Notes: generated by a model not told the origin, from the sequence alone. Counted from the first letter of the stretch, positions 40,210 to 46,619 are shown. The stretch: 64,000 nucleotides of DNA from an uncultured Actinomycetes bacterium (GCA_963724315.1 CAVRUF010000010.1:60956-124955); one strand, 5' to 3'. A program made the numbers and translations.

Positions 40210-40788
40210 ATGGCGAGGCGTACACGCAATCTGCTCACGACGCTCCTCTTGCTCGGAGTCGTCGGGAGCGTGGCCGGATGGGGCGTCTACTCGGCGTTCA
40301 CGGCCACCACGACCAACTCCGGCAACACGATCACCGCCGGCACGGTCTCGATCTCCCAGCACGCTGGTTCGACGACGCTCTACAGCGCGTCCAACCAGGG
40401 CCCCGGCGCGACCACGGTCGGCTGCATCCGGGTCACCTACGGCGGTTCGCTGGCCTCGAGCGTCAAGCTCTACAGCTCGAGCGTCACGAACGGCACGGCG
40501 TTCAACCTTCAGGTCGAGCGCGGTTCGGGCCTCACGTCGCCCGACAACACGATGAACTGCACGGGCTTCACGGCGTCGTCGACGGCGTACAACGGGGCCC
40601 TCGGCTCCTTCGCCGGGACGTACGCGGCCGGCGTCGACGGCAAGGCCGGCGGCGCTGCGTGGGCGACGAGCGACAGCGTCGACTACCGCTTCACGATCAC
40701 GGTGGTGGACGACCCGACGCCGAACGCCCACACGAGCTCGCTGAGCTCGGGTGCTCACACGTTCACGTGGGAGGCCAGGAACAACTAG
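40210..40788 (+). CDS. TasA/camelysin-like secreted protein with SipW-dependent ('alternate-type') signal peptide, paralog 1
   Basis: AAGGAGAAAAC lies before ATG 40210. MARRTRNLLTTLLLLGVVGSVAGWGVYSAFTATTTNSGNTITAGTVSIS… continues to …GCIRVTYGGSL…NCTGFT…FTWEARNN at the stop. Confidence 0.75.
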   Translation: MARRTRNLLTTLLLLGVVGSVAGWGVYSAFTATTTNSGNTITAGTVSISQHAGSTTLYSASNQGPGATTVGCIRVTYGGSLASSVKLYSSSVTNGTAFNLQVERGSGLTSPDNTMNCTGFTASSTAYNGALGSFAGTYAAGVDGKAGGAAWATSDSVDYRFTITVVDDPTPNAHTSSLSSGAHTFTWEARNN

Positions 40789-40810
40789 GACGAGCTAGCC
40801 CGACTGACGC

Positions 40811-41398
40811 TTGATCGCGCTGGGAGCGGAGATGAGATCTCTCGCCTTCGCTCCCGGCCGGTCAGGAGAGCGGGTCATGCTTGCGGCAACTCGTATCCGG
40901 ATCGACTGGCTGGCGCTCGTCGCCGGAGTCGTCCTCGCGGCAATCGCACTCGCCGGCTGGCGAGTCGACGGAGGTCTCAATCCGCCCCCCGCGGATGTCG
41001 CCCTCCTCGTAGCACCGTCCCAGGAGATCGCAATCGCGACGACCTCGGGCTCGGACGAAGCGGTGGCCATTCGAGCGACGGACTCGGAACAAGGCGTAGC
41101 GCGAGGCCTCGAGATCCGAAACGCGACGGGCGGCAAGCTCGACCTCCGTCTTCAGGCCACCCCGGCGACGGGCGAACTCGACGAGTCGCTCACCGTCCGG
41201 ATCGTGACCGGAGGACAGACGCTCTTCGAAGGGCCGCTCGGGGCGCTTCGAGCCGGAACTCCGGCCTTCGCCCTCGAGAGCCACGAGACGTCAGACGTGC
41301 AGGTGCTCGCTTGGATCCCGACCTCCGCTCGAGATGAGTCGTGGGGAGCGCGGTCCGAGCAGGTGAGGCTCGAAATCGTCACCACACCAAGCGCATGA
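40811..41398 (+). CDS. membrane-anchored beta-rich accessory protein of the TasA-like cluster (unknown family)
   Basis: ORF 40811..41398. The likely start is ATG 40877 (MLAATRIRIDWLALVAGVVLAAIALAGW, a TM helix). The ectodomain reads …LEIRNATGGKLDLRLQATP…LTVRIVTGGQTLFEGPLG…VLAWIP…VRLEIVTTP. The stop overlaps the next start (ATGA). Confidence 0.55.
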   Translation: MIALGAEMRSLAFAPGRSGERVMLAATRIRIDWLALVAGVVLAAIALAGWRVDGGLNPPPADVALLVAPSQEIAIATTSGSDEAVAIRATDSEQGVARGLEIRNATGGKLDLRLQATPATGELDESLTVRIVTGGQTLFEGPLGALRAGTPAFALESHETSDVQVLAWIPTSARDESWGARSEQVRLEIVTTPSA

Positions 41399-42049
41399 GA
41401 CTCTCGATCCAGATCATCCACACTGACGGCGGCGGCCAGGCCCAGCGGCCTGTGCGGCGGCGGCGCGGCAGGAGCAAGCTGCTCTTCCTCTCCGTCCTCT
41501 GCGCAGCTCTCGGGCTCGCCGGCTTCGGCGTCTACTCGGCCTACACGGCGACGACGACGAACACCGGCAACTCGTTCGCCTCCGGCACCGTGTCGATCAC
41601 GGACAACGACTCCTCGACGGCGATGCTGAGCCTCGCGAACGCGAAGCCCGGCGACTCCGACTCGAGTTGCGTGCGGGTGACCTACACCGGTTCCCTCGCG
41701 GCGAATGTGCACCTCTACGGCGCGTCGAGCGGCGGGCTCGCGCCGTACCTCACGCTCACGATCACCCGCGGGACGGACCCGTCGCCGTCCTTCGATTCCT
41801 GCACCGGATTCACGCCCGACGCGACGAACTACATCGGCGCAGGCGCCGGCATCGTCTACCAGGGCGCGCTCTCGGCGTTCGGCACGAACTGGGCGACCGG
41901 GGTCGTCGACCCCGTCACAGGGAGCCCGGAGAGCTGGACGCTGAACGAGTTCCACTCGTACCGCTACACGATCACGCTTGGACGACAACAACGCGGCCCA
42001 GAACCAGACCGGGACGGCCTCCTTCACCTGGGAGGCTCGGAACCTGTGA
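41395..42049 (+). pseudogene. TasA/camelysin-like secreted protein with SipW-dependent signal peptide, paralog 2; one frame break near 41980
   Basis: MRLSIQ…RRRRGRSKLLFLSVLCAALGLAGFGVYSAYTATTTNTGNSFASGTVSITDND…SCVRVTYTGSL…SCTGFTPD…HSYRYTITL reads in one frame. After removing one base in cttgg (41978-41981) it continues DDNNAAQNQTGTASFTWEARNL to the stop at 42047-42049. Confidence 0.75.
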
Positions 42050-44504: not shown

Positions 44505-45644
44505 TGCGCCTCCTCACCGTCGTCTGCGCGATCGCCGTCGCCCTCGGAACGGCCGCGGCCGCCTTGGCCGCCTTCAGCGCGATCACGTCGAACGCGAGCA
44601 CGTTCTCGGCGAACCCGGACCTCTCGAACCCGACGGTCACGGCGTCGATCATCGCGCGCCCGTCCGGCCTCCTCCCCGGGAAGATCCGCCAGGGCGGCCA
44701 GTACTACGTCTACGCGAACGCGACCGACGCGGGCAACCCGCCGAGCGGGATCTCGACGGTCACGGCCAACATGACGACGTTCGACACGGGCACCGGCTCG
44801 GTCGCGCTGACGACGGCCGGCGGCCCCTGGACGGTGAACGCGGTCTCGTACGCGTACCGCTCGGCGCTCCTGACCGCGAACACGCCGCTCGTCACCGGCA
44901 CCTCCTACGTCTACACGGTCACGGCGAACGACAACGCGTCCCACACGAGCGGCGCGACGAACTTCAACGTCACGATCGAGACCTACGCGGAGGTCATCTC
45001 CGCGATGACCGGGCTCGTCAGCTACTGGAAGCTGAACGAGGGCGCCGGGACGAACGCGGCCGACAGCGCCGGCGCGAACACCGGCACGTACACGAACACG
45101 CCGACGCTCGGCCAGGCCGGCGCGCTGACCGGCGACACGACCACGTCGGTGTCCTTCAACGGCACGAACGAGTACGTGAACGTCGCCGACGCGGCCTCGC
45201 CTCGACATCACGGGCAACATCACGATCGAGGCCTGGATCCGCTCGAACACGCTCATCAACAACTCGACGATCCTGTCGAAGGGCTCGACGGCCGGCTACC
45301 GCCTGATGCGGAACGGCAACAACAACCCGTCCCAGTTCGGCACGAGCGGCCCGACCAACGGGAACCTGAACGGCGCCACGTCGATCAACGACGGCGTCTG
45401 GCACCACATCGTCGCCGTCTACAACGGCGCGAACAAGTACATCTACCTCGACGGCGTGCAGGACGCCACGGTCGCCGCCACCGGCGCGATCACGGCGAAC
45501 GCCACCGCCCTGCGAATCGCCGAGAACGCACAGGCGACCGGGCGCTACTGGGCCGGCTGGATCGACGAGGTCTCGCTCTACAACGTCGCGCTCACGCCCG
45601 CCGAGGTGCTCGACCACTACAACGCCGGCAAGGGCACGGGGTAA
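44504..45644 (+). pseudogene. secreted Ig-like + LamG (Laminin_G_3-like) domain protein with SipW-type signal peptide; one frame break near 45200
   Basis: ATG 44504 overlaps the preceding TGA (TGATG). MRLLTVVCAIAVALGTAAAALAAFSAITSNASTFSANP… leads to a beta-rich domain, then …LVSYWKLNEGAGTNAADSAG…SVSFNGTNEYVNV. This joins …LDITGNITIEAWI… and ORF 45306..45644 (…GVWHHIVAVYNGANKYIYLDGV…WAGWIDEVSLYNVALTPAEVLDHYNAG). Confidence 0.65.
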
Positions 45645-45647
45645 CCG

Positions 45648-46615
45648 ATGAACGACGTCCACGAGCCCGAGATCCAGGGCCCCGACGACGATCCGTCGGA
45701 CGACCCGTACTACACCGGGACGCCTCCCGCCGAGCTCGCCGAGGAGCAGCTCGCGGCGCCGCTGGCTCGCGATCCTGCTCGCGATCCTCGTCATCCCGCT
45801 GCTCGTCGCGCTCGCCCTCGCGGGCGGAAGCGGGACGGGCTCCGGCTCCGGCTCCGGAGCCGCCCGAGTGCTCGGCCGCGAGCCCGGAGAACGCCGCGGC
45901 CTGCGCGACCACGACGACGGACACGACCCCGATCCAGTTCCCGGGCAACCCCGTTCCGCCCACGACGACCACGACGGGCTCGGGCGGCGGCGTCTCCGCC
46001 CGTGACGGTGTCGCCTCCCCCGCCGGTGTCGCCGCCTCCGCCGAGCTTCAATCCGACCCCTCCGCCGAGCCCGGCTCCGCCGCCTCCGCCCACGCCTCCG
46101 GCTCCGCCGCCCCCGCCTTCGCCTTCGCCTCCCCCGCCGCCCCCGGCGTACGACGGGCCTCCGAAGCTGACGCAGCTGAACGGCAGCAAGCCGCTCTTCA
46201 AGCTGCCGAACGCGGCCGCCGGCAAGACGGTCTCGCGCTGCGTGACGATCAAGTACAACGGGAATCCGTCCGCGCGCGTGCGGCTCTTCGGCGACCCCAG
46301 CGGCGGGCTCGAGAACTACATCGACCTGAAGGTCGTGCGCGGCACGTCCACCTCGGGCACGAACGGCTCGTGCGCCGGGTTCACGCCCGACTCGACGAAC
46401 TACCTCGGCGACGGCTCAGGCGTGATCTTCAAGGGGCTCCTGTCGACCTTCCCGGCGACGTTCGCGGCAAGCCAGGACGATCCCACCCAGGCCGACCGCG
46501 AGAAGTGGACGAACGGCGAGAAGCACACGTACCGCTTCGAGGTGACGCTCCGCTCGAACAACGCCGCGCAGGGCCTCACGGTCTCGATGGACTTCGCCTG
46601 GCAGGCGAAGGACTA

Positions 46616-46619
<4 letters not shown>
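45648..46619 (+). pseudogene. type-II membrane-anchored protein: acidic cytoplasmic N-terminus, TM helix, Thr/Pro-rich stalk, C-terminal TasA-like domain; about 3 frame breaks
   Basis: MNDVHEPEIQGPDDDPSDDPYYTGTPPAELAEEQLAA joins RRRWLAILLAILVIPLLVALALAGGSGTGSGSGS (second frame). This joins EPPECSAASPENAAACATTTTDTTPIQFPGNPVPPTTTTTGSGGG (third frame). It then returns to PPVTVSPPPPVSPPPPSFNPTPPPSPAPPPPPTPPAPPPPPSPSPPPPPPAYDGPP…SRCVTIKYNGN…SCAGFTPD…[31 protein letters not shown] at the stop. Confidence 0.6.

Follow-up and report, generated by a model that had tools for sequence, protein, structure and literature searches.

A cluster of seven genes, all on the + strand at positions 40210-46619 and here named A to G, was read directly in a 64,000-nucleotide stretch of DNA from an uncultured Actinomycetes bacterium (GCA_963724315.1 CAVRUF010000010.1:60956-124955; the whole stretch is hereafter called the window). 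We propose that this cluster probably encodes an extracellular fibre of the TasA superfamily, which would be exported by Sec and built by N-terminal donor-strand complementation, with neither sortase nor usher. The proposal draws on direct observations, namely the gene content of the cluster, the family and fold assignments of its products, the distribution of motifs among them and their co-conservation in relatives. Only A and B are uninterrupted open reading frames (ORFs), and the products of the other five genes are described after frame correction.

Gene A (40210..40788) is an intact ORF encoding a TasA-like subunit of 192 residues, laid out as a signal peptide, a donor-like segment (AF..TTTN..GTVSI) and a jelly-roll domain, with two conserved cysteines; gene C (41395..42049) encodes a second TasA-like subunit, of 217 residues. 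The original prediction, made from the sequence of the window, held that both small proteins carry a SipW-type N-terminal motif directly after a hydrophobic helix, and this motif is indeed found immediately downstream of the helix in each of them, as GWGVYSAFTATTTNSGNTITAGTVSI in A and as GFGVYSAYTATTTNTGNSFASGTVSI in C. Few parts of the family as a whole are as well conserved as this N-terminal segment, in which F30, T33, T34, N36, G44 and V46 are invariant, and of the cysteine pair C72 is invariant and C117 is at least 90% conserved. Moreover, A, C, E and F all keep aromatic or hydrophobic positions equivalent to F29 and F39 of TasA, which are donor-strand contacts in the TasA fibre (PMC9674648).

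The proposed link between the small proteins and TasA/camelysin proteins is supported by family models, database names and fold. C matches Pfam PF12389 (Peptidase_M73, the TasA/camelysin family) with 26.2 bits for a threshold of 22.5, the match spanning its N-terminal ~70 residues only, and so do 42 of the 82 diverse A and C relatives (best E=5.6e-10), which match no other Pfam family. A 60%-identical Gaiellaceae homologue carries the NCBI name 'TasA family protein'. When the AlphaFold2 model of A (predicted local distance difference test score, pLDDT, of 80) was compared with the PDB using Foldseek, the top match, and the sole one with E<1e-3, was the cryo-electron microscopy structure of the TasA fibre (8AUR; E=8.4e-5, probability 1.0, TM-score 0.47), so that the predicted fold is akin to the TasA jelly-roll, as had been anticipated. 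Local alignment of C with TasA (5OF1/8AUR) pairs SFASGTVSIT..LANAKPGD with TFASGTLDLS..LSNLKPGD, over the donor strand and the region of the first sheet. Against the equivalog model of Bacillus subtilis TasA (NCBIfam NF046066), C scores 27 bits for a cut-off of 450; it is a member of the TasA family and not a TasA orthologue.

A comparison with the alternate-signal-peptide models TIGR04088 and TIGR04089, which the original prediction had put forward as a check, gave scores below both cut-offs: A scores 17.9 bits against TIGR04088 (cut-off 19; C, 10.3 bits) and 17.3 bits against TIGR04089 (cut-off 60), and the N-terminal regions of E and F match neither model. Homologues of A number 864, and clusters at 50% identity 2208. 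Some of the homologues are named 'predicted ribosomally synthesized peptide with SipW-like signal peptide' by JGI, a label that presumably reflects a match to TIGR04088 in several close homologues. The corresponding role as precursor of a ribosomally synthesized and post-translationally modified peptide (RiPP) was rejected, because these are proteins of ~190 residues that fold into a jelly roll. Two further JGI names look like misannotations (P0002, P0013): a 93%-identical homologue of A is named after TIGR03807, 'putative cofactor-binding repeat', to which A itself scores 13-17 bits, which is chance level, and a 91%-identical one is named 'lipoprotein-anchoring transpeptidase ErfK/SrfK'.

Gene D (42046..42654) encodes a signal peptidase I of 201 residues that had been claimed to be of the archaeal/endoplasmic reticulum (ER) type rather than of the LepB type. 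The models agree with this claim, as D scores 88.1 bits against TIGR02228 (archaeal/ER-type signal peptidase I; cut-off 51.85) and stays below the cut-off of the bacterial-type model TIGR02227 (30 bits for 47). It also matches Pfam Peptidase_S26. With 81.9 bits against the SipW model NF046067, whose equivalog cut-off is 190, D is SipW-like and not a SipW orthologue. Its boxes, SGSMEPT (Ser), LLSHRV/SHR (His replacing the bacterial Lys) and KGDAN (GDxN), are also present in the intact D of the closest related locus (L003, see below) and agree with the Ser/His/Arg triplet reported for TafD, the dedicated peptidase of the haloarchaeal Tafi fibres (PMC11821415).

With regard to the export route, the proteins of the window do contain a twin arginine (RR), but it is not part of the consensus of the family (RxRK / xRK), and the L001 orthologue of A has KR. 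Twin-arginine translocation (Tat) as the default was thus rejected, and given that RR is not conserved in the family, Sec is the default route; we conclude that the products of the cluster are probably exported by Sec and not by Tat. The LPXTG motif is absent from all seven proteins, none of the cluster proteins matches a sortase family, and no credible TLxTC signature was found in the window, where a regular-expression search gave one isolated, unverified match. A sortase-assembled pilus was rejected on the grounds that neither LPXTG nor sortase evidence exists. The cluster likewise contains no usher gene and no DUF5305 (TafG) gene, DUF5305 matching 0 of the 7 proteins.

Gene E (42617..44504) encodes a larger TasA-like subunit, of ~627 residues, whose N- and C-terminal parts align to C and in which two concanavalin/LamG-like domains sit in the loop preceding the last strands. 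The lectin-fold pair described in the original prediction as splitting this protein is well supported for the second insert (Laminin_G_3, 2e-25), the first giving a weak, below-threshold match to the same model (E=0.002, 18.6 bits). A, C, the two E halves and the C-terminal domain of G all show homology to one another. The four TasA-like domains have in common the cysteine pair and a terminal strand, F-x-W-E/Q-A, of which the strand had been pointed out before; it reads FTWEARNN in A, FTWEARNL in C, FRWEAT(NQ) in E, where it is seen after correction, and FAWQAKDY in G, each time followed by the stop codon.

The two genes that follow E divide the elements of such a subunit between them. F (44504..45644; 380 residues) has the same signal peptide as A, C and E, followed by the donor-like segment (AAFSAITSNASTFSA), and lacks a TasA-like acceptor domain; after the signal peptide and the AFSAITSNASTFSA segment, a beta-rich region and a LamG domain (Laminin_G_3, 3e-27) come next. 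It had been described as an Ig+LamG protein with the signal peptide of the small subunits, of which the signal peptide and LamG stand, the 'Ig' (immunoglobulin) domain having no significant family match. The model of TafC, the Tafi tip protein (NF052521; cut-off 410), matches F partially, mainly over LamG (5e-14, 52 bits), and scores 23 bits with E. G (45648..46619; ~323 residues) comprises a cytoplasmic tail, a transmembrane (TM) helix (~45760-45840, readable after frame correction only), a Thr/Pro-rich stalk and a C-terminal TasA-like domain devoid of donor segment. The intact L003 orthologue of G, of 315 residues with the TM helix RRRWVAILLSILLIPLLVAIALAG, backs the earlier description of a membrane-anchored TasA-like domain on a Pro-rich stalk. 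In a joint alignment (A4), G joins A, C and E exactly after the donor segment, poly-Pro standing in its place, and F has the donor segment only.

Gene B (40877..41398) is an intact ORF for a protein of 173 residues, in which a TM helix at the N-terminus precedes a complete pilin-like beta-sandwich. The original prediction was right in counting seven genes, but it described only six of them and left B uncharacterised. The AlphaFold2 model of B (pLDDT 84.5) is matched in Foldseek by self-complemented FimA (6ERJ, 4e-5), the archaeal bundling pilin AbpA (7UEG, 5.6e-5), CfaB and the Sulfolobus thread (7PNB), and B matches no Pfam or NCBIfam model.

Based on this distribution of donor and acceptor elements, we infer that D cleaves the signal peptides and that the fibre polymerises, is polar, adheres through its lectins and is anchored. 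In the proposed mechanism, A, C, E and F would have their unusual signal peptides removed by D, which would cut immediately in front of the conserved A-F/Y residues and thereby free an N-terminal strand; this strand would enter the jelly-roll of the next subunit, and polarity would be set by the domain composition of F, A/C/E and G. F, with its Ig-like and LamG regions, would cap or nucleate one end only, since the donor strand is present but the acceptor fold is absent, and would present its lectin there, like TapA of B. subtilis or TafC. The shaft would be made of A, C and the lectin-decorated E, each being both donor and acceptor. G, as an acceptor only, with its N-terminal TM helix and a Pro-rich stalk that could span the wall, would form the cell-proximal terminus, like TafF. 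B, whose complete pilin-like domain would be membrane-tethered, is a candidate conserved accessory protein, possibly chaperone-like, or a second anchor. The 'complete appendage' of the original prediction, with a defined tip and base, is a prediction from domain composition.

To ask how widely these genes occur together, we used 31 loci retrieved by a genome scan with protein A, all of them from metagenome-assembled Thermoleophilia, Solirubrobacterales or other Actinomycetota, whose gene content was established by profile search of stop-to-stop translations. The co-conservation expected from the original prediction is found: TasA-like genes adjoin a SipW-like peptidase in 26 of the 31 loci, and 2 of the other 5 are contigs that are cut short. 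B occurs in 21 loci, LamG or F-type proteins in 15, a donor-less TasA-like domain in 11 and the identical seven-gene arrangement in 5. In L001, L020, L023, L028 and L030, the signal peptide and donor-like segment are joined to other cargo domains. The presumed adhesin end is the variable part of the locus, and the varied cargo suggests swappable tip modules.

In more distant actinobacterial loci (L028 11086-11721, L030 11172-11861, L006 ~13532-14059 and L020 2896-3900), this signal peptide with its donor-like segment (AAFSATTSNPxNSF) is found on other cargo, one cargo domain being marked by 'GWTETGVTWNxQP', which we take to be DNRLRE-like, and another being a repeat domain. Solirubrobacterales-type loci carry several modules of the F N-terminal (Ig-like) kind in tandem 3' of the peptidase (L012 13605-16205, L013 12499-15057 and L024 11084-13669). 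Related clusters were also seen in metagenome-derived genomes that bear the labels Patulibacter minatonensis, a cultured species (L015 2000-7020), and Spirillospora sp., of the Actinomycetes (L026 502-2794). The system is therefore not confined to Thermoleophilia, and there may be a host that can be cultured.

The closest known systems, characterised experimentally, include those of Bacillus. In B. subtilis, both TasA and TapA are substrates of SipW. Mature TasA inserts its residues 28-38 into the next subunit, and TapA, whose first residues are nearly identical to those of TasA, is limited to starting a fibre by its already complete Ig fold (PMC9674648, PMC10151520). The biofilm fibre operons tapA-sipW-tasA of B. 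subtilis and sipW-tasA-capP-calY of B. cereus share with the window PF12389 jelly-roll subunits, a dedicated ER/archaeal-type peptidase, overlapping genes, the absence of sortase and a mature N-terminus of the form AF.., then ..FASGT... TapA resembles F as a donor-only accessory, the complete Ig-like fold being that of TapA, and B. cereus capP, which lies between two TasA paralogues (PMC13082335), resembles B by position. In contrast to the Bacillus systems, the host of the window, a soil bacterium whose genome was assembled from a metagenome, belongs to Actinomycetota (Thermoleophilia) and not to Bacillota, and the subunits of the window are shorter, stop right after the F-x-W-E-A strand and have a conserved cysteine pair. 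The window also adds E, with two lectin domains inside the TasA fold, and G, with its TM-anchored, donor-less TasA-like domain on a Pro-rich stalk; B has no detectable similarity to the TapA or CapP family models, and D stays under the SipW equivalog cut-off (82 vs 190 bits).

A similar parts list is found in Tafi, in which the reported order is TafC at the tip (a pilin-like domain and LamG), TafE as adapter, TafA as shaft and TafF as TM anchor, TafD being the peptidase dedicated to the system (PMC11821415). Donor-strand pilins, a LamG tip giving the first donor strand, a membrane acceptor and an S26 peptidase are common to both (PMC11821415, PMC12337348), and the tip protein TafC is the one whose model matches F partially (5e-14). 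The window cluster differs in being bacterial, in having signal peptides with no conserved twin arginine (RxRK), in lacking both a DUF5305 (TafG) gene and a TafB regulator, and in the simple, ~200-residue architecture of D, whereas TafD is a four-TM, two-domain protein. Moreover, the TM helix that would anchor G is N-terminal and that of TafF is C-terminal, and the pilins of the window group with the central TasA family, not with the Tafi family. AbpA pili, Sulfolobus threads and AbpX also belong to the TasA superfamily and are built from donor-strand subunits with a jelly-roll or beta-sandwich fold, AbpA (7UEG) and the thread (7PNB) being the structural matches of the B model, and AbpX loci also contain a signal peptidase together with tip and minor components (bioRxiv 10.64898/2026.01.04.697558). 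Their relation to the window proteins is undetectable in sequence, however, and their accessory genes differ; archaeal bundling pilus (ABP) loci have no dedicated peptidase (PMC9245690), whereas the window has D.

As mentioned above, C, D, E, F and G require 1, 2, 4, 1 and 3 frame changes, respectively. The 11 frame-breaking events lie near 41978 in C, 42159 and 42349 (+2) in D, 42768, 43160, 44059 and 44492 in E, 45200 in F, and 45747, 45842 (+13) and 45992 in G. Their nature was assessed by DNA alignment with L003, the closest of the 31 loci, which lies on a 2.64-Mb Thermoleophilia chromosome with 87% DNA identity and carries all seven genes at the equivalent position (panB, Yip1, cluster, uvrA), each as a single intact ORF, including an E of 626 residues. 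All the breaks are extra sequence in the window, nine being single-base, one +2 and one +13 in a GGCTCC repeat, with no deletion. The frame-corrected proteins align end to end with those of L003, at amino-acid identities of 93% (A), 90% (B), 94% (C), 92% (D), 81% (E), 92% (F) and 70% (C-terminal domain of G), so the frame-corrected reading adopted in the original prediction is confirmed by intact orthologues. After correction, in-frame stops are absent and synonymous codon differences exceed nonsynonymous ones by ~2:1 (A-D and F), from which purifying selection on the corrected genes is evident. Similar breaks are seen elsewhere: the housekeeping gene panC (37770-38574) is broken by a similar +1 at ~38037, with four further events of this type in the 10 kb upstream, and five genomes of the set assembled from long-read metagenomes (L004, L007, L008, L017 and L023) have breaks at other, non-homologous sites. 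Single-base insertions relative to L003 are also scattered over window positions 30250-50800 (e.g., 31155, 34703, 35581, 37298 and 38037).

Given that L003 has all seven genes intact and matching the corrected proteins, we regard errors in the assembly consensus as the most likely cause of the breaks. The converse explanation, by which the frameshifts would be genuine and the cluster an array of decaying pseudogenes, inactive in this genome and functional in its relatives, would account for the fact that five of the seven genes are broken, and for a density of breaks about threefold that of the upstream flank (11 in the 6.4 kb of the cluster vs 5 in 10 kb; binomial P=0.002), with none in uvrA (46616-49930). 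This enrichment is unexplained, and recent decay therefore keeps a small share of our belief; we nevertheless consider it quite unlikely, as every event is an insertion, panC and the long-read relatives are broken in a similar manner at sites of their own, the corrected genes have no in-frame stops and are evidently under purifying selection, and A and B are still intact. In the long-read metagenome assemblies of this lineage examined here, insertion errors break genes for surface proteins, so that most of the locus will be missed by automated annotation. Besides the number and the density of the breaks, several other results weigh against a functional donor-strand fibre. The TM-score of the A model to 8AUR is modest; A alone does not match PF12389 and, as noted, reaches the threshold of neither TIGR04088 nor TIGR04089; and family profiles A1 and A3 did not retrieve TasA significantly from PDB sequences, for which reason the link of the A family to TasA is made through fold comparison and Pfam only. 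Profile-profile comparison of B with the A family detected no relationship (probability 0.3), so that B is not simply another TasA paralogue at the sequence level, and the role we assign to it is a guess. A simple scan found no sigma-70-like promoter, and the promoter and terminator scan was uninformative as a whole.

Two alternatives accept the genes as functional. According to one of them, the products would be SipW-processed monomers, secreted or on the surface, such as camelysin-like proteases, lectin adhesins or wall-associated proteins, that form no donor-strand fibre. This is in line with the formal name of PF12389 ('Camelysin metallo-endopeptidase'), with the differing JGI names of some homologues (e.g., the RiPP label with its SipW-like signal peptide) and with the compact AlphaFold2 monomer of A, in which the N-terminal strand folds back. 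We give it little credence, given that it is TasA in its fibre form that the A model matches best, that conservation within the family is particularly strong in the N-terminal segment, that donor-only and donor-less members recur together, which is hard to explain with monomers, and that the experimentally studied members of the TasA superfamily cited here all polymerise by donor-strand complementation (PMC9674648, PMC9245690, PMC12337348). Alternatively, the fibre could be released and bundle into a biofilm-matrix scaffold as in Bacillus, G and B then being membrane assembly or processing factors and not termini. Bacillus TasA and CalY fibres are indeed matrix components, with TapA as nucleator and CapP as chaperone (PMC10151520, PMC13082335), B lies between two TasA paralogues like bc_1280/capP of B. 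cereus (PMC10151520), and G is found in only 11 of the 31 related loci. This arrangement seems unlikely to us when set against the structure of G, whose full acceptor-type TasA-like domain, long Pro-rich stalk and TM helix have a geometry that suits a wall-spanning anchor, and against the Tafi precedent of a TM-anchored terminal subunit. Within the donor-strand fibre that we favour, a more specific picture can be drawn tentatively, and we hold it to be possible, if short of an even chance: Thermoleophilia and related soil Actinomycetota would build a cell-anchored, polar TasA-type pilus, as a Sec-dependent equivalent in bacteria of the archaeal Tafi, with lectin domains inserted into a shaft subunit (E), a tip made of a donor strand plus swappable cargo (LamG, DNRLRE-like or Ig-repeat, depending on the genome), a donor-less base on a Pro stalk that spans the wall and the membrane-tethered, pilin-like B as an assembly chaperone replacing the usher.

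As to novelty, the original prediction knew of no experimental description of such a system in Actinobacteria-like lineages and overstated how new it would be, as actinobacterial TasA homologues are published, databases name 'TasA family' proteins, and the logic of tip, anchor and dedicated peptidase has been described for both Bacillus and Tafi. PF12389 has been recorded in Actinobacteriota (PMC9245690), actinobacterial TasA homologues are also noted in bioRxiv 10.64898/2026.01.04.697558, and an architecture of tip adhesin, anchor and dedicated peptidase was shown experimentally for haloarchaeal Tafi in 2025 (PMC11821415, PMC12337348). The cluster opens no new category, because the fold, the dependence on a peptidase and the assembly principle were already known. 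We found no experimental actinobacterial TasA/SipW system in the open-access literature, an absence that is not thereby proven. Four features appear to be undescribed: the lectin-split TasA subunit E; the donor-less subunit G with its N-terminal anchor and proline stalk; the B family; and the combination, in a bacterium, of central-TasA-type pilins with a Tafi-like parts list. The cluster thus offers a well-supported and testable prediction in an understudied but abundant soil lineage, which will not surprise specialists of TasA-superfamily fibres. Thermoleophilia, Solirubrobacterales and Gaiellales are reported to be abundant in soil, and we know of no study of their surface structures. If the proposal is true, this would be the first fibre or adhesin system for the class Thermoleophilia and a Sec-dependent bacterial parallel to the archaeal Tafi, with a bearing on the evolution of TasA-superfamily fibres across domains, and it would provide a rule by which polarity and tip adhesins can be read from sequence: a donor-only tip, a donor-plus-acceptor shaft and an acceptor-only anchor.

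In the window, whose G+C content is ~70%, the cluster is flanked by a divergent gene for a Yip1-like membrane protein on one side and by the convergent uvrA on the other. The packed, same-strand arrangement reported in the original prediction can be seen at every junction that it named: ATGA at 41395-41398 overlaps the stop of B and the start of C, GTGA at 42046-42049 the stop of C and the GTG start of D, and TGATG at 44502-44506 the stop of E and the start of F, and a 3-bp gap separates F from G (45644/45648). The leader of 155 bp (40055..40209, + strand), which extends from the divergent Yip1-like gene to A, and the strong ribosome-binding site, AAGGAGA (40199-40205, + strand), 4 nt 5' of the ATG of A at 40210, were likewise read directly as described. 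At the far end, G (+) and the convergent uvrA (-) overlap by 4 bp (46616-46619) with zero spacer; no terminator-like hairpin was detected at this junction, where L003 is 10 bases longer. Elsewhere in the window, a tRNA-Val (GAC) lies at 2157-2230 on the - strand and a cobalamin riboswitch at 13376-13538, also on the - strand (Rfam RF00174; full-length match of 96 bits), and blocks at 8001-12000 and 30001-32000 have a G+C content of 0.75-0.77, compared with an average of ~0.70.

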